Part shown: one piece after another, positions 1 to 49,100 of the stretch
Position numbering within the stretch: the stretch's first letter is position 1
How the letters are laid out: each line of letters starts with the position of its first letter
Assembly: GCA_000091205.1 (NCBI GenBank)
Contig: AP006499.2
Strand: one strand, 5' to 3'
Source: Cyanidioschyzon merolae
Taxonomy: Eukaryota
Length of the DNA: 64,000 nucleotides
Notes under the pieces: model-generated
Told to the model about the DNA's origin: nothing
Database searches by the model: none
The model's input: only the letters and a program-made list of their open reading frames with translations
Made by a program: the position numbers and the translations under genes

Positions 1-1238
1 TCGAGATCGTGTCTATGGCGTCAGAGCGTGGGTGTAGCTCGGCGAAAGAAGGACGTTGACTTGACTGGATCGTAGCACGGTGCATAGGCTGGCAGGATTC
101 GCCGCCCGACGCTCGTGTCCGGGGTGCGCACGACCTGACCGCTCTTGCGTCATGGGAAGCGGGGGTATCTCCGATCAGGACAGAACAACGTCGTGCGGAC
201 AAGCTACGAGGCGGGCATCGACGAATGATCCGGTGGGAAAGGTTTCCGTGCGAATGGCGATTCATTCGCCACGGTACGTTTGAATCGCCACTGCGGCTGA
301 TGTCGTCGTCAGACTCGCCTATCGCTTTTTTTACGAATAGCGGTTTCCACGTCTTGGCATACCAAAATACCTGTGTTCGATTTCTCCCGAATATAATCTG
401 ATCGAGTACGACGAACACTCGTCCCGGTGGGCGTGTTCACGTTTCAGCGTGAGACCGATAGCGCAACGCGCGATGCGCTCTCATTTCTCTGAACGCGGCA
501 TTTCTCTTCATCAGCGTTCGTATCCAAGGTAGAGAAACTTGACATGCCGTGACTTGTCTGGCAGGTTTGCGTAGCGTCCACACTGATGAGACTGGACCTA
601 AGAGACTGTCTCCTGTTTGGATGGCGTTGTGTAAGTTGCACAATAGGGACACGGCGTTCAGCAACGTGCCCAGGCGACGTGGCGTTCATCCAACTGCGTA
701 TCTTAGCGTGACTGCTTTGTAGAAGAAACGCCATTGTCGATTGGACACCAAAGACGACATAAAGCCTCTCCATGGCTTGTCTTGAATCTACAGGATATAT
801 TCTTTTTTGCCGGATACCTGCAAGAAACATAACCAAAACATGCACAGGTATACAAGAACGCGCTGCTCTACGTAAAACAACAGAGCGCGCGTAACGCACC
901 CGATTTTTCTTCCGATGAACTGGAAACAGCATATACACCAATGTTCCGCATGCAAACATCCAAGTGGCAAGCCCAAGCTGGCCCTGTCACAGCACGCTCG
1001 CGAAAACTGCAGTTGCGTCGCCGATGCGGGTATGCCCCCTGCAACCGGGTATTCAAGGGACACCAGGTGCACAGCAAGCGCCTCGTCACAAGCGTACACA
1101 AAGCGACTCCCACACTTGCTTTTATGTGATGATTCATGCACATCGAGATCAGTACAAAGCGAAGCTCGCCGATGAAGCACCTGTCTTTGTCAATGCACGT
1201 CTGTCTATCGGTGTGTTTCTATGCTTGTCGTGAAACAA

Positions 1239-4200
1239 TCATCTGCGCTTGTCGTCGCTCGCTGGGCAGCGCGTGAGGCCGTAGGCGTACGGACCTCGCA
1301 CCCCGCCGTGCGCTCGACGATCCCACTGGCCAGTGACCTCTAGTCCAAGCGTATTCCGCAGAAAGTGCTTCATTTTCGCAACAGTTAAAACGTGACCGAG
1401 GCAACGGCTTTTCTGTCGTTCATACGAGCGGCTCCTTTCGGAGGTCGTCGAATCCTCGCAAGATGTTCCTGCAGCAGCTAACTCTGCTTTGAGCGCGCGC
1501 AAGCGAACAAAGTCCGTATGTGGTCCGAAAACCGTATTCGGTGTGAAACGATAGTGCTGCATCAGGAAGCGCGCGAAGCAGTGAAACGGTTGGTTAGGTT
1601 GCAGCGCTATCGCTGCCAATATCTCTTCGCGTTCCGCTACACCGAGCATGCTCGCTCGCGTAGGATTGCGCTGGCCTCCACGTCGCCGTTTCTGTGGCTG
1701 CGCTGGTTCCAGGGTCACGCTCTGCGCACTCGTCGTGATAGGCGAGAGCTCCCGACCAATGTCCGCAGTCTGGACACGCTCCAGCGGGTCATTCCATGCT
1801 CGCAACTGCTCGTTTGCCGTTGCCGATGCTTGTTCCTGGTTGGCGGCAGCATCCTCTGGACCAGTTACCCAGCGGAGAAACTCATTGAGTTGCTCGGGAC
1901 GCACTACACTCAGTTGCGAAGACGACCCCGAAGAGCGTCCGCCAGGCTGCATCGCACCAACTTCAGACGCTCCTGCGTCCGCACGTTCGATCCAGGAGGG
2001 CGCGTAGCCTCGTCGTTGTCGTTGTCGGCTTTCTGGCACCAACGCTGCTGCTGTATGTACACTGCCAATGCCGAATGCTCGACGACTGTGGTTACCATAG
2101 GAAAGCGACTGAAGAGCGTTGTGCTCGACGGTCGGGGCGAGCTCCTCAATGATGGTCGTTGAGCCCCTTGAAAAGCGATCATGAAGTGCGTATGGCGTTC
2201 CATTCGTGAAAGAGAACGTTTCCATCCCGGAATCGTCCGAATCCGATGCAGATTGCTCAAGCCACAACTGCGGCTGTTGCAGATCAATTAAAGACCACAG
2301 GGATCGGGTTGGTTGTCGCAGTACAAATACACGCCGCATGAGGTCCATGGAGTCGAGTGCTCGCGCTCGAGCCGTCCGCGAGTCCACCACCGGATGCGCA
2401 TAGCAAGAGCCCAGCGCGATACCCGCTTGCGCAAGCACTGAAGCTGGCGCTCGCCACGGACGATGGACGTAACACGTAGGCAGTGCGGCCAATTCGGGTA
2501 CCCAGCGCTTCACGTACTCACCATGGGGATCTTCTCTGAGCCCAAACGTGATCGGATTGACGATACACGCAAACGGGAACGCATCGGTGTGGCAGCCTGC
2601 CGTCCACTGCCACCCGAGCGTCTGACAGGCTATGTCCCCGTCGAGAACATGATCGTAAAGAAAGCGGAGACCATGCTGCCACGGAATGAGAAGGTACTTG
2701 GTCAGGAAGCCGGCGATCATGAAACGAATGCGATTATGCAGGTATCCAGTGGTACGCAACTCCCGAATCGCTGCGTCAATGATGGGATACCCGGTTTGGC
2801 CGCTTCGCCAAACCTCGAGCATGCTCTGATCGTTCCAGCGCCAAGGAAAGGCGCGGAATTCGGGCAGTAGCGGCTCTTCGAAGGCCTGTGGATTGTGAAA
2901 GAGCAGGTGATACGCGAATTCTCGGAGGCACATGTTTTTCAGGAACGCCTTCACCGCGCTGATGGTCTGTTGTGCATCTGCTGCATCGGTGTGGGTACGT
3001 GTGTTTGCCGCGAGCGCCTCGCCTGCTGTAGCGTGACGCTCACGGTTCAGGAGCGCATGCCGTGTGCTCCTTGGAGCCGCTTGATCGGTACCACCACGAC
3101 CTCCGTCGTCGTTGTCATCTGCTTCATCACCATTATTATTATTATTATCGTCGTCGTCGTCATCCTCATGATCGTAGAGAAAGTAGGTCGTGCCACTGGA
3201 GCCTCGTGGTCGGTTCACTTGAACCCGAAGCGGAAACATCGGCGCTCGCTGCGGCTGATAACCGGGAACTGCAGCAGTAGCAGTAGCAATAGCAGTAGCA
3301 TCCATGGAGTGAGGTGTTGCACTGATTCGGTGTGGCGACTCCAGGTAACCGTTCTGCTCCCTCGAATGCGCTGGTATTCCATTCCCTAGGGAAAGCGCGC
3401 TAGGCGCGTCCGACACGATGTCAGCCATGATTGCTGCATACAGCTGCCGCGGGCTAATCTCACCGAAACGAACATGCATGGAGAGGCGGCTCGTGCCGTC
3501 GAGCGCACAACGAGACTCTCGACGCCCGAATTTGGGATAACGCTCTCGGAGAAACCTTGACAACGTAATCCACGCTGCTCGCTCACCGACAAGCGGCCAC
3601 ATGCATTCCATCTGGGCACACCATTCCGGACTGAGATCAGAGACCAGCTCCAGCTCATGAATCTCGACATGGGAAACGCGTTGCCGTAAACCAGGCAGCG
3701 TCTGCAGCCTCAATGGCGCTGCTACAGGTGGGGGCGGTTTCGGGAAAGCGAGCCACTTTTCCATGAAGGGGTGAAACTCATTGAATGGCTCACCGTTGTC
3801 TTGAGCAAGCTCCCACGGCTCCACAAGAAGTTCCGATTTGAAGCTAACGAGTTCAACATTCCAAACAGCAAGGCGTTGTTCCAACGTTCGGTCCACTTCT
3901 GCGGCACCGATATCGTAGCAGCGGTTGAAGTAGACTGCGCTCGCATTCGTTTCCCGCGCCAGCTCCACAATGCTTTCCACGAGGCTCCCCTGCAGAACCA
4001 CCAGCCGCGCATCTTCGCCGTAGCGGTGCGCGAACTCCCGGTCCAGCGCCAGCAGCGACTCTCGCAGCCGCCAGCGCCCTGCTCTGCCAGGTTTACTCAT
4101 CCACGGCAGTTGCGGGTTCCAAACGTACACAGGAACCACCGGCATACCCGTTTCTGCAGCCGCACAGAAGGCAGCATGATCATCTATTCGGAGGTCGTGC

Positions 4201-4385
4201 CCCCGGTACCATACCAGTATGGGGCGCTGTGTCGCGCCCTGCGCTGCAGCCACTGCGAGCGCTGGTGTACGTCCCGGTGGCGGATGCGCGTTCACCTCCC
4301 GCCCCGCTTCGAGCAACGGGGAGCTGCTCAAAGCAAGCCACGGACACTCCTCTCCACTAGTTTCTGAAGGAGGATACGCGGGCAT
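1239..4385 (-). CDS. Cryptochrome/photolyase-family protein, 1048 aa from the first ATG, with a ~170-aa acidic/Asn-rich insertion and a ~400-aa disordered C-terminal extension
   Basis: N-terminal photolyase alpha/beta domain (ILVWYRGHDLRIDDHAAF...VVPVYVWNP). FAD-binding domain motifs TSRLS..HVRFGEIS, LREFAYHLLFH, TGYPIIDAAIRELRTTGYLHNRIRFMIAGFLTKYLLIPW, LGWQWTAG...DAFPF..IVNP. The ORF-track start at 4409 is GTG; the first ATG is at 4385 and the TGA stop at 1239-1241. Confidence 0.85.
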   Translation of the reverse strand: MPAYPPSETSGEECPWLALSSSPLLEAGREVNAHPPPGRTPALAVAAAQGATQRPILVWYRGHDLRIDDHAAFCAAAETGMPVVPVYVWNPQLPWMSKPGRAGRWRLRESLLALDREFAHRYGEDARLVVLQGSLVESIVELARETNASAVYFNRCYDIGAAEVDRTLEQRLAVWNVELVSFKSELLVEPWELAQDNGEPFNEFHPFMEKWLAFPKPPPPVAAPLRLQTLPGLRQRVSHVEIHELELVSDLSPEWCAQMECMWPLVGERAAWITLSRFLRERYPKFGRRESRCALDGTSRLSMHVRFGEISPRQLYAAIMADIVSDAPSALSLGNGIPAHSREQNGYLESPHRISATPHSMDATAIATATAAVPGYQPQRAPMFPLRVQVNRPRGSSGTTYFLYDHEDDDDDDNNNNNGDEADDNDDGGRGGTDQAAPRSTRHALLNRERHATAGEALAANTRTHTDAADAQQTISAVKAFLKNMCLREFAYHLLFHNPQAFEEPLLPEFRAFPWRWNDQSMLEVWRSGQTGYPIIDAAIRELRTTGYLHNRIRFMIAGFLTKYLLIPWQHGLRFLYDHVLDGDIACQTLGWQWTAGCHTDAFPFACIVNPITFGLREDPHGEYVKRWVPELAALPTCYVHRPWRAPASVLAQAGIALGSCYAHPVVDSRTARARALDSMDLMRRVFVLRQPTRSLWSLIDLQQPQLWLEQSASDSDDSGMETFSFTNGTPYALHDRFSRGSTTIIEELAPTVEHNALQSLSYGNHSRRAFGIGSVHTAAALVPESRQRQRRGYAPSWIERADAGASEVGAMQPGGRSSGSSSQLSVVRPEQLNEFLRWVTGPEDAAANQEQASATANEQLRAWNDPLERVQTADIGRELSPITTSAQSVTLEPAQPQKRRRGGQRNPTRASMLGVAEREEILAAIALQPNQPFHCFARFLMQHYRFTPNTVFGPHTDFVRLRALKAELAAAGTSCEDSTTSERSRSYERQKSRCLGHVLTVAKMKHFLRNTLGLEVTGQWDRRAHGGVRGPYAYGLTRCPASDDKRR
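3118..3152. repeat. Trinucleotide run (ATT/GAC, read as AAT/GAC on the minus strand) encoding the poly-Asp/poly-Asn stretch inside the cryptochrome insertion
   Basis: 'accattattattattattatcgtcgtcgtcgtcatcctcatga', read directly; translates to DDDDDDNNNNNGDE on the minus strand. Confidence 0.8.
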
Positions 4386-7300
4386 CACACATGCAGCGTC
4401 AAGTTCCACAAAGCACCGCTGACGTCCTCGTGTATCGACGGGTGCTGTTCGCGCGCACCTTGAACCTGTATAAAGCAGGTACCCGCAAGCACTCGGAACA
4501 AACCTACCACTTTGTCGTTACGAAGTCTACAAGCGACCAGTAGCGTACGACAAGTGTACCAGCACCCAAGTGCCTGCTTGATTGTCCCGGAAACCTGATA
4601 GCACAGAAGCCTTCCGTTTCGGACACCGGTTTGGAGGGGTCAGCTGCGACCAGCACTACGAGCACCACCAGATAATCGATCATATATGGACATTGAGGAC
4701 GTCGAGGTCGCGATGCAGCGCTGCTGCCGCCGCTGCCGCTGCGCAAGCGATCATCGACTGCCCGTAACACGATGCGTAGGATACCTATGTGCTGGTGCAG
4801 TGGAGGCTGCACGTGTCGGTTGCTATGGTCACGTCTGGTGCATGTGGGGCAATGAATTTGGGTGTAGGAATCGTGTATGGAGCCTAGGTTCTCCAAAAAT
4901 CTTGGACAAGTTGCAATGAGGGGTAACGGATCTAGGTGTCGTTGGAGGGTGCTTGGAGGTCATTTGTCGGGGTGCTTGTGTGTCGCTCCTTGAGCGCTGG
5001 CGTTCGATACATCACCGGAATCAAGATGACTCATGACGCTCTTGAACAGCGGTTCGTAAAATAGCTGATATCGTGATGCAGAGCATAGGTACAGGCCCCA
5101 GGCTTTTCCGTTCTTGATGTGGAGCGTGCTCGAATCGCGCATGCTTCGAGTTTTCTGTCTTTCTGGTTCATGACGGCGCATGTGTTGCTGGAAGAACGAC
5201 GAACAAAACTGGACGTCATGTCTCGGCAATTTGTTCACCAGCTCATATCGATCGTTCACTGAACGTGTCTCGTCGAATCATCGATGCCTTTTCGAGCCAC
5301 ACCTGCTTGGATCCTCGTACATATCCACGGACGACATTCCGCAGCAGCGTGGCATTTCTGACGCGGGGCGCTTCTGGAGGCCCCCGTCTGCTCGGTAGAC
5401 ATCTGGAATAGGTCAAGGACGCGCGCTTGAGTCATCGAAGCGACTGCTTCTGGTGGAGCGCAAGTCACCACCACCATCCACGAAAAAGGCGTAGACGGAT
5501 CGAGAAATCTCGATCTCGTGTCTAGCCTGGATTCTCCTTGCGCGGCTTGTTTCATCATGGGAAACACCACGTTCCAAAAAGATTCTTTATCAAATGGAAC
5601 ATCGTGCTTTTGCGTGTGCCGCTTACAGGTTACGCATCGAAGGCATCGCCCGGAACAAGCCAGGAATTGCCGTGGAAGGCACCAGAGGCGCCAACGAATG
5701 AAGACACCAACCAGAGCCCTCTGTAGCCGTCAAAGGCATGTACCGGGATGTGAAGCAAGCGTTCACCTGCCATAGGACGACGCTCGGAGGAGCAGAAGGT
5801 GCGGTTTATGTATTAGAACATCTGACCAGCGTCAAGTGTTTTCGCTGCGAAGCGCGCTCCGAGGCTATCTATATCGAAGATGCATATTGCAAGCGACGCG
5901 TAGATTGGAACTACTGCTTCTGCATGAAATGCGTCGACAGCATCCATACGCGGCGAATTCGGGACTGGAACGTATCCATCAATACCCTTCGACTGATGAT
6001 AAGGGGGCCGGAGGCACGCGAGAGACAGGCGTCTGGAAAGCCGATGAATCGAGAGAGACGAAAACGTAGCATTTGCACAAGAATTCCGCAGCGGCTGGTA
6101 TCGGAGACAGTGGCAGGAGTCCCAAACCTTACAGTGCGCACCTGCGTTACGAGGCCCATTCCGTCGGAAGCTCAGGCTGGTCTGGGCGCGTGCACCATGA
6201 TGATGATGACGACGACGCGCTGGTTGCCACAATGATGTTGCTCTGGACATTTCAGCTACAGAAAAACGTGCAAAACCTGATAACCAGCCACAGATGCATG
6301 GACACGAGTCAAGGCTCTCGAATCTTGCTTGCCATATCAATGTCTGCGAAAAGCTTGTACGAACACCGCATCTCCCGGGGCGAAGGAGTTCGAGCGCTGC
6401 ACATGTCCTCGACTGGCCGGGAGGCATGCTGCAGGCTCGCGACACCCAGACGATAGCTGCTGCTGCTGCTACTGCATGCGTTCTCGGGAACATCTTGTAG
6501 GTATATTTCAGCGCGAAACGCATGCGTCGACGCTCACACCACCTCCCTGTACAAGAGCAGAGCACTTTGACGAATAAGTTTCACAGCGTACCGAGGCCTT
6601 GTCCGGCGAATCGACTCGAAAAGCGCGCTTGTTTGCTCTTGCCCCGCATCGGATCGCGAGTTATCCAAGGTTCCGATTCTTCATGTTCGAAAGCGCTGCG
6701 CCTCTGCATGAGTTACTCGGGAAAATAGATGACTTTATACGGCAAACAGCGTCAGCATTTGATTTGTCTAGGACGAGGTCTGCAAACGACACCTGCGTGG
6801 ATGTCACTGCAAGCGCAGCGTTACAAACCTCAACAGCTTCTGGTACCGGCAAGTGAGCGCCCCAGGGCCAACACAGCTGGTTCACGGCTCTCGTTATCCA
6901 AGCATACAGCAGGACGCTTCCGCCCCACACGAGTGATTGCATGCAAAGTACAGCACAGTCACGATGAAGGCACACTCGTTGCGCTACTGCTTGCGAGAGC
7001 ACACGGCAGCAGGGCCAACCGTCACGTAGAACACCCACGCTTGATCAAGGAAGAGCACGCCGCATCGCTCGTGAAACCGGCATCCGCTACAGAAACACCC
7101 CAGAAAGAAAAGTTATTCTATTCACTGAAACGGATCGGATAAAGGTACGCCATCCGATCAGTGCACAAGCCAGCGTAGCGCAGCCTGGTATGCAGTTGGC
7201 CCGCAACGCGTTACGCATCTGCAAGGCGCATACCTGTCCGTCAAGGAAAAGAACACGCAGCAGCTTGTATAGCACTAGCGCAGAATCACCAGGATCCAGA

Positions 7301-17460: not shown

Positions 17461-20400
17461 TCAGCGTAGCTCATCATGACGGGTAGGGTGCATCGATTGC
17501 TCCCGCTGTGCAACGAATGCTTCCCAGGCGTGGTCATCGACCAGCGTCGCTGCTGCGGTAGCCTCTGTATCCAGTTCGTCCCAATGCGGAATGATACGGC
17601 GAGCGCTTTCGAGTTTCGACTCGTGTGTACTCGGATTATTACAGAGATCAATGGTTTTGGCACGAGCCTTGCTCTGTTCGCTGCACCAGGTCTCGCACCA
17701 GAGCCATTCGGACGGTAGGGATTCGAGGGGAACCAGCGGTTCAGCAGCGTTCATGGTACCGCTTTGCTCAGCCAGCGGCACACTTGCATAGTTCGGCAGA
17801 TCCTGGTCCAAATTCGAAAGCGACTCTGGATCGGCGCTCAGTCTCTGGTACAACGCTCGAAGCGTGTCACCGGCACGGTGTGCGCGAAAACGTTTCAGAT
17901 CAACAACGAACAACGCTGATATGTGGTACGGTTGCCCGCGTAGGTGTTTCGCCCAGAATCCTCGCTTCCAAAACCGATACGCATCCATTTCGGGACGATC
18001 GTCACAAAACGGCACGAAACCGTAGACAGCACGTGATCCGAGGGCCAGCTCCCAGAGCTCACCGAGGTCACCGCGAACCACTTGATCCGAATCGATGAAG
18101 ATGATACGTTCCACATCCGACGGGAACAAAACATCTAGGAATAAAATCTTATACGCCCAGATCAGGCGCTGTTTCTCGTGCTGCGGCCGTAGCCATCGAG
18201 GCCAGGCATACCATACCAGTTCGTAGTCGAAGCCGAGGCGATGTGCTAGTCGTGGCAACTGGGCACGAAACCTGGGCGACAGAAAGTTGCCCACCAGCCA
18301 GAACTTGCAGCGATACCTCGGTGTCGCTCGGACCGCACTCAGCATCATGATTCGAAGCAGTCGTTCGTACAAATGCCCAGAGGCAATCGAGAACAGATGT
18401 ATCAGAGGACGCTTGTCCGCTGATGATGACGACGACGATGATGCGCTCGGCGGTAGACAGAGACGCTCGCGACGCTGCACTTGTGACGACGTCCGAAGGG
18501 CAGCGACGAGCGCCCAGACGCGCTCATACCAGGTACGTTGCAGGTGCGCCACACGCAATAGCAGCAGCGGCTGTGACTGTGTCGACTGGCCCCACAAGTC
18601 GTCCACAACCAATAACGTGGCGTTGCTGGCATCGATCGGCTGCAGGTCCACAAGTCTAGCGGCATAAGGCGCGCGTTGCGCCTCGACAAGGGCAATCGAG
18701 AGGTCATCGCGTTGCCTCCCGAACGCCGAGGGAATCGGTATCGGCACAAGACGCCAAATGCCCGGTGTCAATGCCAGCTGAAAGTAGCCGGAACCCTCCA
18801 TCACGACAGTCTCGACCCGAGACCGACGCTCACGACTGCAGTGATCCGGGTGTCGAATGCCGCCATGCTGCTCCAGGCGTAACGCGAGGCCAGGTGCTCG
18901 TGTAGACGGCTGCCGATCGACGACGAAGCCCTCTACGATGAGCTTGCTCAGTTCGTATCGAATGGAGCGATGCGAAGGCGTACCTGGGGGTGCCCACTGC
19001 ACCAGTGCCACATTGTCTGGATCCAGCTCAGCATGCTGCACTGTTGTGAACCAGGTTGCTGGTGTCCGCAGGTGAACGCTGTGGATCCGGTGCTCGGCAA
19101 GTCGATCGAAGATGACGCTGGCGCTGGTACCGTTCGCCAGGGCATCTGCGAAACGCGTCACCAGCTTGGAGCGTACGTACCGCGGCTGGAGCAGGCGTCC
19201 GTCATCGCCTCGCCACTGGAGTCGCGGGTTCAGCGTGACATCGAGTTCAGCGTCGAGTGCTTCGCCAAGTAACTTGCGTAGCACCAGGGTGAACGAAGCA
19301 TCAGCGGCTGTGAATGGTGCAATGAGGCCCTCTGCTCGCAGCGCGCTTCCAGTGTGCTGCCTGGGTACTGCGGGCGCCTTGCGATACCGCAGTGCAGGCA
19401 CCAGGTGCCGCAAACGACGAAGCGAGTCAAGCGGTAGCTCGCTGGGCGACTGCTGCACTAGAAGCGATCCGCCACTGGGCCTGCAGCTTCCATCCAAAAC
19501 GTCTGCGAGGATCGTGGAGATCAAGACCGCATCCGCTTGATGCGACTGATCCACAGGGCTGCAGCGCCCAGATAGCGGCTTTGTTTGCCGAATGATGTAC
19601 GAGCCGCAACGAGCCTCCATCAGAGCCGCTTCCCGCTGGAGGACAGCCTTGAAGAGCGCAGCGGCGTGATGTGCCCAAACCTCGTCCCGATCGATTCGAT
19701 ACCGTCTACCGTTGACAACGAGCGCTAGTTGACCTGGGTCGACGCCCCAGCCGCCAGAGAACAACAATCGGAGCCAATTTGGTGCTGGTGTGCCCGTTAG
19801 GGTAGGCGCTGTGGATGCAGGGCTCACCTCCACGCCACCACAGATGCGCTCCAGGCGCCGTCTCAGGGCGTCATCGAGTTGCATCGAAGAGCGCGACGCA
19901 TTCGCAGGTGTCGCTGTCCACAGCTGCATAAGCGATCGAGCAACTGGGCCCGCCTGGAGACCCGTATGAAAGAGCCCGAGTCGTACCGCAGACGGCCATG
20001 CAGCTGCTCCCGGATGGTGTGACGGTTGCGTCCACTGCTGTTCCGCGAGTACGCGCATCGCATCGTGGAGAAACCTGCAGCCGAAAGTTGTATCCAGGTC
20101 GAGAAGAAGCCACACGGTCAATGGCGGCTGGCATCCATCGTCGTGGGCGTCAGCCGCATCCACAACTGCCAAGCGATACGGGATGTTCAGGAGATGCACT
20201 GCATCGCCCTGGGTATGCTGTTGCTGCTGTGCAAAGAGCGCATCCCAGAGCAGTGCAATCGACTGCAGGCCCTGCTCGATGTGCTCCTGCTGTAGCGCTG
20301 TCGATCCCGAGACCAGCTGGGATGTTGCTGAGAGCAACTGCGTCTCAAAGGCCGGCACAAGCACCAGTCTCGTTGCCAGAACCGCAGCAGTGGCGCTCTC

Positions 20401-23238
20401 CTTGCGTCTAGGCGATGGATACGGCCCTGGTGTGACCGTTGTCGATGTGCGCCAGCTCGATGTCTGGTAGACAACGTCGTCCACACAGGCTGCGTCGGGA
20501 GCGAGTCCCGCGCGTGTCAGCTCAGCGAGTCGCTGCACTTCAGCGTTCAGGTATCGAAAGACGGTGGACGCATCTACGGGATCCTTTGCAAGGTCGCCGA
20601 TGCGCTTTCCATTCAGAGCTAGCAACGCTGACGTATCGGCAGGCAGACCAATGCTCCGTAGCCACTGACGAGTGCGTACTTCCGCGTGCACCAGCATCGC
20701 GCACTGGCTCGAGTCGTGAACCTTTGCAGCAGCAGCAGCGCCGCCGCTGCGGAGACCGAACAACGCACCCAAGACTCGCTTCTTGCCGTGCGGATGTAGA
20801 ATCAGCGATTCGTAGTCGTGTTCGGCATCGAAGCTGGACGAGGTCTGATTCGGAGAAGCCGCTTGCATGCCCGCTGCTGTCTGGAGGAAGACGCGTCGGA
20901 CCTGGTCAGCTCTTGGTGGTAACGGCGGCAGCGCGATGGTGCTCGAGCGGCCCCCGAGTCCCTGCAGCATCCACAGTGCAGCGAGCGGGTGTTCCCGCTG
21001 TACCGTTGCGTGCAACTCGCTCAGAAACGAGGCCGCTGCTCGTCGGGAACGCCGCACATGCAGCAAGTAGTATACTGCTCGGCAGATGACCGCATCCGTT
21101 GACGGTTCCAATGGAGAGCGCCTTGGGGGGAGCTCCCCAGGCGACTGGAGATCACCGCGTCTCCATCCCAGCGACCTCAGCATGCCCAGAGCGCGCGACC
21201 AAGGAGAGCGTGGTGCACCCGCGGTGTCACCGGCTGAAGCGTTCCACCGGTACGCTGCCTCATGCGGTGGCACCAGCACCAGCGATATCTGAAAGGGAAG
21301 GACGGGGTCGCGGTTCTTGACCCATTGGATCAACTGAGCGGACGCTTCGAGTCCAGCCGCGGAGCCTGGGTTCACAAAGGCCACCAGCCGGAAAGCGTTT
21401 CGACGTAGTTTCGGAAATGCCTTTGCGCTGGGGCTCTGCAGCAGCTCCTGGAAGCTCGGACTCCAGTTCTGGTATTTGCGATCCCGCTCTATGTCATTCA
21501 GGCGGAAAATGAAAAGCTGCTCCACCGATTGTACAGGATCGCTGTCGGATTCCTCTGTACAATCTAAGAGTGCCGGTAGGTAGAGGCGCGTATCGACGAT
21601 TGTCGTACTTGCTTCAGCTTCGCTTTGACGATGGGTGATGTTCGCAAGAAAGCGTTCTCGATCATCAATCGCCGCTGTTTTCAGCGGATCCATCATGTCC
21701 CAGATACGGTAAGCAGCCAAATGTGCGGCAGCGATGCTGGCGGCACAGAGCGCCACCGATGAAGCGTCTGGGCTGACCTGTCGTCCATTGAGAAATAAGA
21801 CCGAAGGCAGGTTGTCCCAGTGCAGTTCAGGATGCAGGCGACTGAGGTTCTCCGCAGACGCTGTGAGCAGAGCTCGGCTTTGCGCCACGGAAGCCGCAAA
21901 CGAAGGCTCTGCCTTGGCCTCCTTCCAGAGAGCGGCGCCAATGCTCGGAAGATCATTGCCCAGCTGCTCGATACCCTGCAGCAGCGATCCCGTCAGGTCC
22001 ATCAGCAACTCCTCTAGCGTTTCAGATGCACCAGTGTGCTTCGTCGCTTCCGACCAAAGCGATTGCATGAGCAGCGCATCCAGAGTCGCTTGGATTTCAT
22101 CCTTATCGAGGTCCTGAATGTCGATCGCAACAGATCCTGCGGCACCACGCTGTCTGACATGTTGCGTCTTGTTGCGCTGCAACCAGAGCGTCTCGTTCTG
22201 CTTCGTGTCTAGCACCACGTAATCGGAGCTTTTCAGCGCCAGCTCTACTGTGTAGCCGCTTAATGACATCATCTGCGTCGCGTCACTGGAAAAGTCGGCC
22301 GTTAGCGCCGCTCGACTCGGTGCCGCTCTCCGCATCCGAATGACGTAGACGAGCTCGCAGTTCTGGGCACGTTCACGGACTGCACGATGAAAAGCGGAGA
22401 ACGCATCGTCACGGAAAACATCTGTGTACAGAATGGCAGCGATGAGCGGTTCAGTACCAGACTGATCGGTCCAGCGTTTGTCGCCCGGGACATGCGGCGC
22501 TGCTGCACTGCCACCGACACAGCCCAGGACCGTATCCGACGGCAGCAGGAAGCGTTGGGAGGCAAGATTCCAGCGATGTACCTCGTCTATGTTTCGCGGG
22601 AAGCGACTGCGACAAGCATCAACATGATGACCAAGGGAAGCGAGCGCTGCTTCATCGGCGATCGGGATGCGTTCCGCACCGCATACGAGGAGTACCCACG
22701 TGGAGTCTACTGCGTTCAGAGCGGGCTCCAGCTGATCGCGATCGTCCGTCTCCAAACGCTCATGGAGCTGTAGGCGTGCGGCGTAAACACGCTGGACAAC
22801 GAGTACTTCCAAACTTCTCCACGCTTGGCGAACCGCTGCAGTCAACGCGTCAGCCTCTACTGAGGAAGTCAGATCAGCGGCAGCTGCGGTCCACGCAAGC
22901 TCCAGCCGCGTTCGCAGCCAGCGTATGGCACTGAGCTCGCGCTCCGAGTCCGAGTTAGCGCTGCGAAGTAGATCAGTCCCGTCCGCGATCTGGTCCAATA
23001 AACTCCAGAACAAGCGATCTGAATATATTCTGCGTATGCCTTCTAAAAGCTCTAGCGGCAACGATGATGCGTTCCAGGGTGCTACTACGTCAACGTGGAG
23101 TGCCTTCACGCTGCGCCGCACCGCTGCAGGCAAAAAACTCTGCGAAATACCGATACATAATGATGCACAGATTATCAGCGTATACACCGCGCATACCCAC
23201 AGTCCTAATGAGAAACGTTGTCGCCCGAAGCTCCGCAT
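17461..23238 (-). CDS. UGGT: UDP-glucose:glycoprotein glucosyltransferase (UGGT, ER folding sensor), 1925 aa from the first plausible ATG
   Basis: The C-terminal GT24/GT8-like catalytic domain has KILFLDVLFP..VERIIFIDSDQVVRGDLGELW..YGFVPFCDD..YHISALFVVDL. Long N-terminal thioredoxin-like region. The first ATG (23238) gives a hydrophobic signal peptide, MRSFGRQRFSLGLWVCAVYTLIICASLC. The ORF-track extension to 23886 runs through the 65-bp tandem repeats and is an artefact. The C-terminus reads ...RHDELR*. Confidence 0.9.
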   Translation of the reverse strand: MRSFGRQRFSLGLWVCAVYTLIICASLCIGISQSFLPAAVRRSVKALHVDVVAPWNASSLPLELLEGIRRIYSDRLFWSLLDQIADGTDLLRSANSDSERELSAIRWLRTRLELAWTAAAADLTSSVEADALTAAVRQAWRSLEVLVVQRVYAARLQLHERLETDDRDQLEPALNAVDSTWVLLVCGAERIPIADEAALASLGHHVDACRSRFPRNIDEVHRWNLASQRFLLPSDTVLGCVGGSAAAPHVPGDKRWTDQSGTEPLIAAILYTDVFRDDAFSAFHRAVRERAQNCELVYVIRMRRAAPSRAALTADFSSDATQMMSLSGYTVELALKSSDYVVLDTKQNETLWLQRNKTQHVRQRGAAGSVAIDIQDLDKDEIQATLDALLMQSLWSEATKHTGASETLEELLMDLTGSLLQGIEQLGNDLPSIGAALWKEAKAEPSFAASVAQSRALLTASAENLSRLHPELHWDNLPSVLFLNGRQVSPDASSVALCAASIAAAHLAAYRIWDMMDPLKTAAIDDRERFLANITHRQSEAEASTTIVDTRLYLPALLDCTEESDSDPVQSVEQLFIFRLNDIERDRKYQNWSPSFQELLQSPSAKAFPKLRRNAFRLVAFVNPGSAAGLEASAQLIQWVKNRDPVLPFQISLVLVPPHEAAYRWNASAGDTAGAPRSPWSRALGMLRSLGWRRGDLQSPGELPPRRSPLEPSTDAVICRAVYYLLHVRRSRRAAASFLSELHATVQREHPLAALWMLQGLGGRSSTIALPPLPPRADQVRRVFLQTAAGMQAASPNQTSSSFDAEHDYESLILHPHGKKRVLGALFGLRSGGAAAAAKVHDSSQCAMLVHAEVRTRQWLRSIGLPADTSALLALNGKRIGDLAKDPVDASTVFRYLNAEVQRLAELTRAGLAPDAACVDDVVYQTSSWRTSTTVTPGPYPSPRRKESATAAVLATRLVLVPAFETQLLSATSQLVSGSTALQQEHIEQGLQSIALLWDALFAQQQQHTQGDAVHLLNIPYRLAVVDAADAHDDGCQPPLTVWLLLDLDTTFGCRFLHDAMRVLAEQQWTQPSHHPGAAAWPSAVRLGLFHTGLQAGPVARSLMQLWTATPANASRSSMQLDDALRRRLERICGGVEVSPASTAPTLTGTPAPNWLRLLFSGGWGVDPGQLALVVNGRRYRIDRDEVWAHHAAALFKAVLQREAALMEARCGSYIIRQTKPLSGRCSPVDQSHQADAVLISTILADVLDGSCRPSGGSLLVQQSPSELPLDSLRRLRHLVPALRYRKAPAVPRQHTGSALRAEGLIAPFTAADASFTLVLRKLLGEALDAELDVTLNPRLQWRGDDGRLLQPRYVRSKLVTRFADALANGTSASVIFDRLAEHRIHSVHLRTPATWFTTVQHAELDPDNVALVQWAPPGTPSHRSIRYELSKLIVEGFVVDRQPSTRAPGLALRLEQHGGIRHPDHCSRERRSRVETVVMEGSGYFQLALTPGIWRLVPIPIPSAFGRQRDDLSIALVEAQRAPYAARLVDLQPIDASNATLLVVDDLWGQSTQSQPLLLLRVAHLQRTWYERVWALVAALRTSSQVQRRERLCLPPSASSSSSSSADKRPLIHLFSIASGHLYERLLRIMMLSAVRATPRYRCKFWLVGNFLSPRFRAQLPRLAHRLGFDYELVWYAWPRWLRPQHEKQRLIWAYKILFLDVLFPSDVERIIFIDSDQVVRGDLGELWELALGSRAVYGFVPFCDDRPEMDAYRFWKRGFWAKHLRGQPYHISALFVVDLKRFRAHRAGDTLRALYQRLSADPESLSNLDQDLPNYASVPLAEQSGTMNAAEPLVPLESLPSEWLWCETWCSEQSKARAKTIDLCNNPSTHESKLESARRIIPHWDELDTEATAAATLVDDHAWEAFVAQREQSMHPTRHDELR

Positions 23239-23587
23239 CAGCACCTCGGCTGCCAGCTCATGCGGAAAGCACCTGGCTGGCAGGGCGTAGCAGGCTTGAG
23301 CGGCGACAGCGCGGTAGCATCCGCTGCCGCCTCGGCTGGGAATCGCTCCTGCCTGCGTCTGTGTTGGGCCTTCGTTCAACCAGGTACACCAGGGGCCGTG
23401 CTTGCGCTCGAGAGCGCTATGCAGGAGGAGGTGCTTTCGTCGTCCAGTGCGCACCGTTGGACTCGATGCATACTCCCGTGCTGCTTGCTGGTACGTTCGT
23501 TGCCAGCGTAAGCTGCTTTGACTGCCTGGTGTTAATGCTGGGGCAAAGGCCGGGCGTTTGATGGTGTAGTCTGAAGTCAATGCATGG

Positions 23588-23782
23588 GATCTGGTGTTTC
23601 CGGAAGCACGCTCGTTGTAGGTAGTCGTGGAATCGACGTCTGGTACGCATGAGATCTGGTGTTTCCGGAAGCATGCTCGTTGTAGGTAGTCGTGGAATCG
23701 ACGTCTGGTACGCATGAGATCTGGTGTTTCCGGAAGCATGCTCGTTGTAGGTAGTCGCGGAATCGACGTCTGGTCCCTCACG
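23588..23782. repeat. Tandem repeat, 65-bp unit x3, about 350 bp upstream of the UGGT start
   Basis: 'gatctggtgtttccggaagca(c/t)gctcgttgtaggtagtcg(t/c)ggaatcgacgtctggtacgcatga' starts at 23588, 23653 and 23718. Confidence 0.85.
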
Positions 23783-24074
23783 AGCGCTGCAGCGTTTCTG
23801 GGCGAGCTCGAGATCGATCTTCTCGTTGGGTGTATCTCGTCGCTCGATCCGACGAGCTTTCGGGTGCTGCGTGTTCTGGTGGACACTTGTCACGTCGCTG
23901 CTAGGTGCGCTGCCCCTAGTTTTCCCGAGGGGCACCACGGCTTTGTCATAGATGCAGGGGTATGAGGTAGTCGTACCGATGAGGACGCATGGTGCTGCGG
24001 CGAGTCGCTAGCGCCCAGACTCATACCCGTTTCACCACCGCTGCGGTGGATAGCAGGCCATCGACGTCAAGATG

Positions 24075-38544: not shown

Positions 38545-39714
38545 ATGTCGACATTGTTCATAAATATACACTACGGAACATATATCTACCAGGTTCCACA
38601 AACAGGATTATGCGGAAACAGATCGCCTCGTCGCGTTCTGAACTGGCGACAAGTTTGTACACCGCGAAAGCCTCAGCGGCTTTCAGGTCGTTATGGATTC
38701 GCTTGTGCGCTAAAGAGCCCGCGCTCAAGTTCAGCGTCGCGTGGTTGTGGTCTCATTTTCTGGCCTGTGCACTGGGAGTCTTGGAATGGCGCCTGCACCC
38801 CTTCATCTTCATCGTCCACGACTTGCTTCATGATTGTACGGCCTACGTCGAAGGCAGTCCCGCAGCGGCAGTTTGTGTCTGCGCTTGTAGAGCAGGTCCA
38901 GGCACTGGCTGCGGTTCAGCCTGCACATCGGCGTTTACGAGACGATCGTGGTAACCGATTTTATCTCTTTGAAGGACCGGAAGCGCGACCGCTGCCCTCC
39001 GTGACATCAGTGCTATCCACGATTGCGAAGCCGGCGCTCACCACCTGGAGCCGAAACACGGCGCTCGAGGCTATGCGCGACGCGCTTCTTCGCAAGGCCG
39101 GGAAGAGCATCACCAACGAGATTCTGGAACAGGCTCTGCAAGAAGCGAAGCAGCAGCCACGAGCACTGGCGGGGCGGGCAGCGCAGCTCGGCATTCGCGG
39201 ACACGAGGCCTTCGGTCGCGTATTGAGCGGTCTAGGAGCGAGCAAGCCTGTAACTGCAGAGCTTGATCAGACAGTAAGCAACTTTGAGCGCTGGTGGAAA
39301 CATTCTGGGTATGTGCTAGCGTGCTCAGAACTGGTCGTGCGGAGTGAACGCTATGGATACGCTGGCCAGTGTGATGCGATTGCAGTGCGGCTGAACGAAG
39401 CCGTCCGAACAGCGGACGAGTCATCATCGCGACCGAGCGCAAGTCTCGCGGTCTTCGATTGGAAAACAACCTCAGCCATTTATTCAGAGTATGCGCTCCA
39501 GGCGGCTGCGTATGCAAAGGCGTTGGAGGAAATGAGCCACGGTACGTTACATGTACACGAAGCGTGGGTCGTTCGCTTCGGGAGAATGGACTCTGAGCCG
39601 TGTTTCGAAGCACGCCAAGTTCGTGATATAAGCGCTGCGTTCCTTTGCTTCCGCGCTGCGCTCATCCTTTTCAACGAGCTTGGCGAGACACTATACAATG
39701 ATAAAGGTGGCTGA
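38545..39714 (+). CDS. PD-(D/E)xK nuclease of the MGME1/Cas4/RecB-nuclease-domain type (candidate mitochondrial genome maintenance exonuclease homologue)
   Basis: Ordered nuclease motifs are LPSVTSVLS (motif I), GIRGHEAF, YAGQCDAIAV (catalytic D), LAVFDWKTTS (D/ExK) and QAAAYAKAL (QxxxY), the PDDEXK_1 signature. The basic N-terminus is compatible with organellar targeting. ATG at 38545, TGA at 39712-39714. Confidence 0.7.
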   Translation: MSTLFINIHYGTYIYQVPQTGLCGNRSPRRVLNWRQVCTPRKPQRLSGRYGFACALKSPRSSSASRGCGLIFWPVHWESWNGACTPSSSSSTTCFMIVRPTSKAVPQRQFVSALVEQVQALAAVQPAHRRLRDDRGNRFYLFEGPEARPLPSVTSVLSTIAKPALTTWSRNTALEAMRDALLRKAGKSITNEILEQALQEAKQQPRALAGRAAQLGIRGHEAFGRVLSGLGASKPVTAELDQTVSNFERWWKHSGYVLACSELVVRSERYGYAGQCDAIAVRLNEAVRTADESSSRPSASLAVFDWKTTSAIYSEYALQAAAYAKALEEMSHGTLHVHEAWVVRFGRMDSEPCFEARQVRDISAAFLCFRAALILFNELGETLYNDKGG

Positions 39715-46118: not shown

Positions 46119-49100
46119 ATGAACCCTGCAAGCAGACCAGGCTCGTTACCGCAGGGCGAGCAGCGCGGTGTCGCTGGTGACGGCACACAGCGGCGAGTGG
46201 CGGTCACGGCGCACGAAGCGGCACCTCTGCCGAGGCCTGGTACGGGTCCATCACCCGCGGACTATGCTACTGCGTCCGCTAGTCGGTATGGGGCAGCGTA
46301 CGAGCAGCAGCGTTTGTCGGAAAGGTCCACGTTTCGGCAGCAACAACAGGCTTCCGCAGAGTCGCACGGTACCGGTAATATGGGGCAGATATCTGAGGCG
46401 CAGCTTGCTCGTAACGTCTCCGATCAAGCTGATCAGGTTACACAGCGGCCGGGGCGCTCCTCTGCCTGGTCGAGTGAGGCTTCCTCGCAAGGTAATGGAA
46501 CGGCATATACAGGTGCAGGGGCGGCTATGGGCGCAGCGCCGCCTCCACCAGGTCGCCAAAGCGTTCTCCCAACGCCACAGCAACCACAGCGGTCGCCTGC
46601 GGGACTGTCATCACGTTCTGGGGCGTATGAGGCAACTGCGCACTCTGAGTCGGCGTCGGCTCTGGGACAAGCGTTGCCCCCACAGAGAATCAGCCCAGAA
46701 CGCACAGCACCACCCGTCAGGGGCAATATGTCGAACACGATGGCATCCGACGCTCTGCATGCATCTGCCGCAGATATCTATGGATCACCGCGTCGTTTTG
46801 ATACACCCAGTGACAACCAGGGGGCAATGACCACTGACCCGAGAGCTGCTGCTTCAGCTCTCGCGTCAAACAGTATACCACGAGCGGGAGTTGCTCAAGG
46901 TCTACAGGCCCGCCCGATGCCGCAGGGCACCGATTCGCTGTCCAGCGATGGCCAGCATTCCGCTGAAGGCGGAAATCCTACGAACAGCGCACATACTGGT
47001 AGAGCTGGCGGGTACGTTCCTGCTCCATTAGGGTCGAGCGCCTATACAGGGCGTGGTGTAACGGCAGCGACACTCGAAGCAGGACAGCACATGGAGCATC
47101 AGCGTCCGATGCTGATATCGGATCAGGGGCGCTCGAACCTGAGCCATCCGAGCGGTGCACCAGGCGATGCGAGATACACCCCACAGGCTGCTACATCCCA
47201 GTGGGCGACAACTGGCTACGGAGTCGCCGACTCGATTGCTTTCGGTTCCAATCATGGCGATAGCGCAACAGCTACGGCTGTGCAGCATCCATCGGGGATT
47301 CGTACCGGACCGGATACGGCAAGGGGCATGCCCTCTGCACAACCGGTACCTGGTTACCGTGCCGCAGCACCTACTGTACCGCACCTTCATCCATCGATGG
47401 ATGCGTCGATGATGAATGGCGCATCGCCGGTCGCAACTGCTACCAGTGCCGGACATGGAACCGCGGCGGGCAACCAGTATACAGAAGTTAGCCAGCGCAA
47501 TACGGTACCGTTTTCGTCTCAAGCACCGGCTGTAATGCCTCGAGCACCGCCAGGTGGACCCTCTGGAGGAATCACCACCACAGTGTCGCCTCCAGGCCAG
47601 AATCGTGTCCCGTCATTTTCGAATCCGTTGTCGATGGGTACGTCGCTTTCTGCTGGCGCCAATGCGCTGGGATCTACCACGAGATCAACCATCTCATCCG
47701 GATATAGCCCCGTCGGATATGCTAACCGACCTGTACCTGGCGTTTTGATGCCCAGTCCTGGAGATGGACCCCCGACTGCGGGGCAGTTCGCTCCAGCAAT
47801 GGCGTCTGTGGGTCCAGCGTACGCCCGGCAGGGCAATTCTGCTGTTTCATACCAAGCAGTTCCGGGAAACGTGCCGTATCCGATGCAACCCATTCCTGGT
47901 AGTGGCGGTGCGGGGCCGCAAATGGCGGGTCCTCCAGTACCTGGTTCCTATGCGAACTTGCCAACCGGTATGTCGACTGCGCCCGGAGCGCCATACTACG
48001 GGCCACCTGGCGGAATGGTAAGCGCACCTGTTCAAGCGATTCCAGCGCCAGCAGCAGCAGCAGCGACTCCGAGTACCGACTTTGCATCGCTACCACGCCC
48101 CGCACTGGATCCCGACTCTGTCATGTATCGAGTATGGTTCGGTGATGCTTTGCAGCGGGACCTCCTGTGGCCGCAGCAGGTTCTTGCTGGCGACCGTTCC
48201 GCCCATGGAGGCGGATATAATCCGGGAGCTGCGGGTGCTGGGATGCCTTTCGAACCTCAGATTAACTTTTGTGCCTTTGATCCAACCTGGTGCTGCCCGA
48301 TTGAGCTCTTCAGACCCTGCCACCCGTCGCGGATGCGCATGAGCGTCAACTTCTTCCCAAACAGTGCTGCTACTCGCAGCAAGACTGGACTACCATTGGC
48401 TGCGATTGTACGCCCTCTGGCACCACCACTGAGTGACGATCCTCTTGATCAGGTGCCTGTGGTGAACTTTGGAACAAACGGTATTGTGCGTTGTCGTCGT
48501 TGTCGAACGTACATCAATTTCGGTGTAACATTTACGGACGGTGGTCGACGTTGGCGCTGCAATATCTGCCAACTGCTCAACGACGTTCCACCCGAGTACT
48601 ATTCTCCCTTGGACGCAAATGGAAAGCGGCATGATATTGCTGAGCGGGCAGAGCTGTGCTCCGCCTCCGTCGAGTTTGTCGCACCGAGCGAGTATATGAT
48701 TCGGCCTCCACAACCACCGGTTTACGTCTTTGTTTTAGATGTTTCGTATGGAAGTATCATTTCGGGGGCGTTTATTACGTTTGTAGAGACGATTCGTAGC
48801 AGTCTGGATCTGCTTCCACAGGATGGTCGCACACGTGTCGCCGTGCTCACGTTTGACACCCAGTTGACGTATTGTGTGCTGCCGCCGGGCCAACAGGGTG
48901 AACCTCGTTTCCTGGTGACACCCGATGTCGACGATGTGTTTCTACCGACGCCTGAGGATGTGCTTGCGTCGCTGGATGAGTCGCGGCCGGCTTTATTGAG
49001 ATTGCTCGACAAACTGCAGACCATCTACGATCCGGCAACGCTGCAGAGTACGGCAACCTTGACGGGGAATGCGCTCACAAATGGAAGCGCCTTGGGCAGT

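Follow-up and report, generated by a model that had tools for sequence, protein, structure and literature searches.

How is a photolyase-like protein of 1048 aa built, and what may the sequence beyond its core be for? This question is raised by a gene at positions 1239-4385 of a 64,000-nt stretch of contig AP006499.2 from the red alga Cyanidioschyzon merolae (hereafter the window). A first-pass annotation had proposed a photolyase or cryptochrome of about double the usual family size, in which an insertion keeps the reading frame and the C-terminus is greatly extended, and this was borne out. The list of open reading frames (ORFs) places the gene on the minus strand, which the annotation had left unstated. 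ORF 1239..4409 comprises 1056 aa from a GTG; translation from the first ATG at 4385 yields 1048 aa. The latter protein is identical to XP_005538316.1/BAM82280.1, a 'probable cryptochrome' of C. merolae strain 10D that is encoded on a 1,232,258-bp chromosome. Both lengths occur in databases because different start codons were chosen, the upstream in-frame GTG (window 4386-4409) by the prokaryote-style gene calling of JGI and the ATG by RefSeq. BAM82280 is called PHR7 in a preprint on CRISPR in C. merolae (10.1101/2021.05.23.445365). With an existing annotation and name, the C. merolae cryptochrome CmPHR7, the gene itself is no new discovery. Interest attaches to the C-terminal domain of the protein, a predicted winged helix that apparently was undescribed until now. 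We consider it fairly probable that CmPHR7, composed of a plant-type core, a translated loop and a winged-helix tail, senses blue light in the nucleus and binds DNA through an output domain of its own.

The tail was initially described as a Ser/Arg/Gln-rich extension of ~400 aa and as possible signalling sequence. Its measured length after the core is 358 aa. The compositional description fits the first ~225 aa, which are of low complexity (S 12%, A 11%, R 9%, Q 8%), and fails for the last ~125 aa, which form a conserved folded domain. The idea of signalling sequence was therefore incomplete, as the tail ends in a conserved domain whose named members are red-algal cryptochromes only. Across ten homologues, 22 columns of these ~125 aa are invariant, including DFVRLR-LK and VTGxWDRRxHGGVRGPYxYG. 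The domain is basic, with a median isoelectric point (pI) of 9.0 in the family. A profile search of 1.84 billion (1.84e9) representative proteins yielded 61 matches to it. All matches of at least 850 aa carry both photolyase-homology domains, and the short matches are fragment-like. The named members all belong to the Rhodophyta: Cyanidioschyzon, Cyanidiococcus, Cyanidium, Galdieria, Rhodosorus, Porphyridium (as 'Cryptochrome-2'), Hildenbrandia and Palmaria. Among the ten aligned homologues is an MMETSP transcript that is marked complete; the fusion of core and C-terminal domain therefore exists in mRNA. According to a review, cryptochrome C-terminal extensions show little conservation and a rather undefined structure (PMC8591175), and the papers found by our full-text literature search describe no folded domain, winged-helix or otherwise, at the C-terminus of red-algal cryptochromes.

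Several members of the family deserve separate mention. Apart from the short fragment-like matches, a single profile match lacks the photolyase-homology core. This protein, P0087 (420 aa, JGI metagenome), contains a divergent copy of the domain at aa 299-404 (E 1.9e-7) without the WDRR..GGVRGPY wing motif and may be a stand-alone or degenerate relative. In a neighbour-joining tree, homologues from Logan/ENA assemblies were placed beside the Hildenbrandia-like (florideophyte) sequence, and other such assemblies formed a second clade. In the florideophyte-like group of P0008, P0009 and P0035 (genes at L002 3278-7027 and L003 10001-13951), the helical-domain loop is short, a large insertion of another kind is found within the N-terminal alpha/beta domain, and the tails comprise 700-900 aa. 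At both of these loci Mre11 is encoded on the other strand, some kb downstream. Cyanidium caldarium possesses two paralogues with the C-terminal domain, P0028 and P0075. One of them clusters with the C. merolae protein and carries Gln at the position next to flavin N5, whereas the other is divergent, with Asn at this position and the changes W306C, N341A and R342A in the numbering of the E. coli photolyase. The presence of two paralogues suggests an old duplication, with the second Cyanidium-type copy lost in Cyanidioschyzon.

The AlphaFold2 model of the C-terminal domain reached a mean predicted local distance difference test (pLDDT) score of 77, and ~90 outside a Cyanidiales-specific loop. 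The modelled elements follow in the order helix, H1, S1, H2, H3, S2, wing, S3, with the invariant motif on the wing. A winged-helix fold is confidently predicted. The wing of the red-algal domain, RRxHGGVRGPYxYGL, resembles that of RFX, RRLGTRGNSKYHYYGL, and RFX1, in its structure with DNA, reads the DNA by means of the wing. Compared with the RFX DNA-binding domain (PF02257; PDB 1dp7, 8zjr), the red-algal domain has one more helix at its N-terminus and a shorter turn in the wing, and WD precedes its RR.

Upstream of this domain, the linker is the region in which most of the amino-acid polymorphisms among environmental variants occur (8 of 12); the two core domains have 1 and 0, and the C-terminal domain has 1. 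In most homologues examined, basic clusters such as RRRR, KKKR, RRKRQR and PKKRKVD precede the C-terminal domain at a variable distance, and the KRRR cluster of CmPHR7 is a candidate nuclear localisation signal (NLS). At the other end of the protein, the N-terminal extension is 38-40% identical to Cyanidiococcus-type sequences, with which it has the motif SETSxEECxWLAL in common; both extension and motif are absent in Cyanidium.

To which class does the core belong? All canonical motifs reported by the first-pass annotation are present, and TSRLS, HVRFGEISPRQLYAAI, KAFLKNMCLREFAYHLLFH, TGYPIIDA, LGWQWTAG and DDDDDDNNNNNGDEADDNDDGG were located in CmPHR7. Both Pfam matches of the core (PF00875, PF03441) exceed the gathering cut-offs. 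The top six PDB matches are plant CRY1/CRY2 structures (E 1.8e-91 to 9e-86); the class III photolyase 4u63 follows at 1.2e-80, and class I enzymes at ~1e-58. For residue mapping, the E. coli photolyase sequence was validated against 1dnp, its numbering was validated too, and 16 family members were then aligned. The ligands of flavin adenine dinucleotide (FAD) are kept, with S299, R554, D582 and D584 corresponding to E. coli S235, R344, D372 and D374. The first three are invariant in 16/16 family members, and the fourth is D or E. The Trp triad is intact as well (W592, W569 and W515 for E. coli W382, W359 and W306). Five of the eight residues checked for contacts to DNA or to the cyclobutane pyrimidine dimer (CPD) lesion are changed (E274 to N484, W277 to L487, M345 to F555, R397 to C607, R226 to E290), and N341, R342 and W384 are kept. 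The changes at E274, W277 and M345, mostly to N, L and F/Y, extend over the entire family, R397 is retained in no member, and R226 is changed in the C. merolae clade and some others. The neighbour of flavin N5 is Q588, which aligns with the plant Asp (D396 in AtCRY1) and with N378 of the E. coli photolyase. Gln occurs here only in Cyanidioschyzon, Cyanidiococcus and the one Cyanidium paralogue; all other family members have Asn. CmPHR7 is, as judged by its sequence, a member of a red-alga-specific branch of plant-type cryptochromes. Because most of the checked CPD-lesion contacts are replaced, it appears more likely to be a sensor than a CPD repair enzyme, and its flavin chemistry would differ from that of plants.

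The insertion had been assigned to the inside of the FAD-binding domain. It is located between the two Pfam models and structurally belongs to a helical-domain loop after the TSRLS/SPRQ helix, outside the FAD pocket. Its size had been given as ~170 extra residues. The distance from FGEIS to FLKN is 169 aa in CmPHR7 compared with 26-38 aa in short family members. The alignment to plant cryptochrome stops at query residue 319 (chain 259) and restarts at 479 (chain 279), setting query residues 320-478 against 19 aa of the plant chain (260-278), so that the net excess amounts to ~140 aa only. Within the family, the FGE[IV]S-FLKN loop is short (26-38 aa) in the florideophyte-like group as well as in Rhodosorus, P0005 and P0007. 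The three Cyanidiales genera have loops of 104-173 aa, and a second large clade has loops of 69-301 aa, with low-complexity sequence unrelated to the Cyanidiales insertion. The existence of three length classes identifies this loop as a site of recurrent expansion. Among the Cyanidiales the insertion is 18-30% identical. It contains a peptide island with the consensus [ML]FPL[RP]x4RP[RC]G[SA]SGxxYxxYD[HR]ED in 4/4 Cyanidiales sequences examined, which may include an RxRxxS-type basophilic kinase consensus. Codon microsatellites encode an Asn run ((ATT)5.7 at 3132-3148) and a Thr/Ala run (hexanucleotide AGCAGT x4.7 at 3273-3300). In 13 full-length environmental variants, the adjacent poly-Asp run varies in length by four codons, in frame, which suggests that growth of the insertion was driven by repeat slippage. 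In our proposed model, a surface loop that accommodates insertions throughout the family has been lengthened here by translated residues that are intrinsically disordered.

An alternative raised at the outset was that the insertion (~2952-3425) is an in-frame intron that is spliced from the mRNA. Its low complexity, its low identity and a length divisible by three are in line with this idea. However, in C. merolae only 39 introns in 38 genes are supported by RNA-seq, with near-invariant GUAAGU and ACUAACC signals and with in-frame stops in 85% (preprint 10.64898/2026.05.17.725761), whereas neither GTAAGT nor ACTAACC occurs anywhere in the coding sequence of CmPHR7 and no stop codon was found across the 158 codons of the insertion. 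Its frame is open in 4/4 Cyanidiales sequences in spite of their divergence, the conserved island lies within it, and the poly-Asp polymorphism preserves the frame. In addition, three environmental contigs of 3.5-3.6 kb (L001, L004 and L005 from JGI samples 3300057138, 3300053675 and 3300053654) are collinear with the window without gaps, cover CmPHR7 alone (window 1103-4683) and are 99.6-99.8% identical to it. Two of them start at 4683 and 4680 (3 nt apart) and end at 1109 and 1103 (6 nt apart), and the third spans 4582-1131. As two contigs share both ends within 3-6 nt, they appear transcript-like and may have been assembled from transcripts of a wild strain akin to C. merolae. L004 ends in an unrelated 3' tail of 38 nt, and the first ~48 nt of L005 repeat an internal stretch of the gene (window 4228-4174). 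In the absence of splice signals and with the frame open in four Cyanidiales, we conclude that the insertion is translated, and we give the intron almost no credence.

Gene identity, domain architecture, residue pattern, predicted disorder and fold, phyletic restriction and relative regional constraint are established for CmPHR7. On this basis we infer that the protein would carry out FAD photochemistry, reside in the nucleus and bind DNA, and that light would control its output domain. These functions might be connected as follows. FAD in the photolyase-homology region would take up blue/UV-A light and be photoreduced via the intact Trp triad, leading to a conformational or oligomeric change in this region. 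The C-terminal extension would act in three parts, a disordered linker of ~225 aa, a basic NLS-like cluster and the conserved basic winged-helix domain. The tethered domain in the nucleus would then engage differently with DNA or chromatin, and transcription would change. CmPHR7 would thus act as a photoreceptor in the nucleus with sensor and output in one chain, the light-driven changes of the core controlling how its own output domain binds DNA or chromatin. Gc-pCRY2 of Gracilariopsis, a related red-algal cryptochrome, was nuclear in a heterologous system (PMC10853006).

Several points weigh against this proposal. Next to flavin N5, CmPHR7 has Gln instead of Asp or Asn, which may bear on the photochemistry. 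The full-length AlphaFold2 model is weak in the FAD domain (mean pLDDT 51) and is informative only for the disorder of insertion and linker, not for docking of the tail. The RNA origin of the three environmental contigs is presumed only. With regard to DNA binding, sequence comparison connected the C-terminal domain with no DNA-binding family. HMMER gave no Pfam match, PF02257 included, at E <= 10 with three fragments and ten members. A profile search of the PDB with the domain returned nothing, RFX included, and Foldseek of the C-terminal model against the PDB returned nothing either (E > 4). A hidden Markov model compared with RFX sequences reached 2-4.5 bits only. The hhalign comparison used an RFX profile of 27 domains, all RFX1-3-type sequences; it gave a collinear alignment of 73 columns with 25% identity (P 0.011, probability 3.7%), a score that 5/200 column shuffles reached as well, and this likeness is only suggestive. 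Because of the Foldseek, hhalign and hidden Markov model results, we do not file the domain as a member of the RFX family; we file it as a winged helix of RFX-like appearance that may also work in an RFX-like manner. Finally, one group, citing unpublished observations, reported that gene expression in C. merolae did not depend on blue light (PMC3372377).

The main rival to an output domain that binds DNA is a protein-protein module. The C-terminal winged helix, like the WHB domains of cullin and APC2, the C-terminal domain of Cdt1 or the winged helices of ESCRT-II, would recruit a signalling partner without binding DNA, and CmPHR7 would signal through its C-terminal extension as plant cryptochromes do. 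Plant CRY1/CRY2 use their long C-terminal extension for output. The invariant wing of the red-algal domain is most likely the DNA-contacting element, as it is in RFX. We think the protein-partner explanation rather doubtful. CmPHR7 might also be a working CPD photolyase, as the JGI label 'deoxyribodipyrimidine photolyase' has it, with winged helix and linker merely as a chromatin tether. A DNA-binding tail fits a repair enzyme, class III photolyases are close relatives of the core, and in most family members the residue at flavin N5 is Asn, as in photolyases, with W384, N341 and partly R342 kept too. The class III (Agrobacterium PhrA, 4u63) and class I (E. coli, 1dnp) enzymes have fold, FAD ligands and Trp triad in common with CmPHR7. 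Against repair stand the residue map, with lesion contacts changed family-wide and Gln in place of Asn378 in C. merolae, and the plant cryptochromes as best matches of the core; a working photolyase was judged quite unlikely. CmPHR7 further differs from the class III and class I enzymes by its extra loop, linker and C-terminal domain. As to the preferred reading of a sensor with its own DNA-binding output domain, its extension to the whole family is more tentative. That the red-algal proteins are single-chain light-gated DNA-binding transcription regulators, joining a photosensor to a very divergent RFX-type winged helix, is a possibility that we hold to be less likely than not.

Reviews credit C. 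merolae with plant and plant-like cryptochromes. With the CRY1/CRY2 proteins of Arabidopsis and maize (1u3c, 6k8i, 6lz3), CmPHR7 shares the core fold, the Trp triad, the loss of contacts of the W277/E274 type and a long C-terminal extension. It differs by Gln (Asn in other red algae) where plants have Asp396, by GWQW instead of the plant GWQY, and by the ~140-aa loop insertion. A regular-expression search of aa 691-1048 found none of the DAS motifs (DQxVP, acidic, STAES). Nor is the extension of CmPHR7 wholly disordered, as it ends in a folded winged helix. Chlamydomonas pCRY/CPH1, Gracilariopsis Gc-pCRY1/2 and other algal pCRYs are likewise plant-type cryptochromes with a very long C-terminal extension (PMC8591175); a conserved folded C-terminal domain is not described for these proteins in the literature searched. 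Functional analogues that combine a flavin photosensor and an output or DNA-binding domain in one chain are the aureochromes (LOV and bZIP), EL222 (LOV and helix-turn-helix) and dualchrome (phytochrome and cryptochrome), the last of which demonstrates that algal cryptochromes do enter fusions (PMC8591175). Compared with aureochromes and EL222, the sensor of CmPHR7 is a photolyase-homology region and not a LOV domain, the putative DNA-binding fold is another one, a disordered linker of ~225 aa lies in between, and light control is putative.

Table 1. Features of CmPHR7 and their positions in the window
Feature	Position	Strand	Evidence
CmPHR7 complete coding sequence ('probable cryptochrome', 1048 aa; stop codon 1239-1241)	1239..4385	minus	ORF list and exact protein match
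Pro/Ala-rich N-terminal extension (aa 1-55), predicted disordered	4221..4385	minus	pLDDT 28-35
Photolyase alpha/beta domain (aa 57-219)	3729..4217	minus	Pfam PF00875 DNA_photolyase, E 6e-35; pLDDT 85-95
Inter-domain linker and first helical-domain helices, with TSRLS and FGEISPRQ (aa 220-320)	3426..3728	minus	Alignment to plant cryptochrome up to residue 259
Lineage-specific acidic insertion, predicted disordered (aa 321-478; net charge -12, pI 4.7)	2952..3425	minus	Loop lengths, pLDDT ~27, charge, identity
Conserved peptide island MFPLRVQVNRPRGSSGTTYFLYDHE inside insertion (aa 383-407)	3165..3239	minus	Common to Cyanidioschyzon, Cyanidiococcus, P0003 and Cyanidium
Asp/Asn run (aa 407-428), part trinucleotide-repeat-encoded, length-polymorphic	3102..3167	minus	(ATT)5.7 at 3132-3148; +4 Asp variant
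FAD-binding domain (aa 481-680), Trp triad W592/W569/W515, Q588 at flavin-N5 position	2346..2945	minus	Pfam PF03441 FAD_binding_7, E 2.4e-69; residue map; plant cryptochrome alignment
Predicted disordered linker (aa 691-915), least constrained protein region	1641..2315	minus	pLDDT 23-30; 20-34% Cyanidiales identity; polymorphism
KRRR basic cluster (aa 899-902), candidate NLS just upstream of C-terminal domain	1680..1691	minus	Basic clusters in homologues
Conserved C-terminal domain, predicted winged helix (aa 916-1040; pI 9.8, net +8)	1266..1640	minus	
Invariant strand-wing-strand motif VTGQWDRRAHGGVRGPYAYGL (aa 1017-1037)	1275..1337	minus	Concentration of invariant columns; model strands 129-131, 133-135

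The ORFs around CmPHR7 are ordinary eukaryotic genes (apyrase, protein kinase, UGGT, RRF, Sec24, EMP70, PMT). Antisense (plus-strand) and flanking ORFs within 1-7000 had no credible Pfam match, and a tRNA and Rfam scan of the whole window yielded zero matches. The Sec24-like ORF (46119-50582, plus strand) has an N-terminal extension of ~780 aa ahead of its zinc finger, and the UGGT-like ORF (17461-23886, minus strand) comprises 2141 aa, and the C. merolae genome may frequently encode long low-complexity extensions. A 389-aa ORF (38545-39714, plus strand) has no Pfam match at E <= 1e-4.

For the family, one helical-domain loop of the photolyase-homology region tolerates expansions of 100-300 residues, which is of lesser importance than the C-terminal domain. 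We know of no RFX proteins reported outside animals, fungi and Amoebozoa; if this range is right and the RFX-type assignment true, an RFX-like domain would exist beyond these groups. Likewise, we know of no described route from blue light to gene regulation in red algae, where cryptochromes have mostly been assayed as repair enzymes. If the reading of the family as light-gated transcription regulators is true, a DNA-binding output domain would for the first time be found built into a cryptochrome. Phytochromes are absent from red algae (PMC10853006) and phototropin is absent from C. merolae (PMC3372377). A conserved winged helix as output domain points to a short route from photon to DNA, similar to that of aureochromes but made of other parts, and this route is directly testable in C. 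merolae with the CRISPR tools existing there. If light gates the domain, optogenetic control of transcription would gain a new and compact scaffold.

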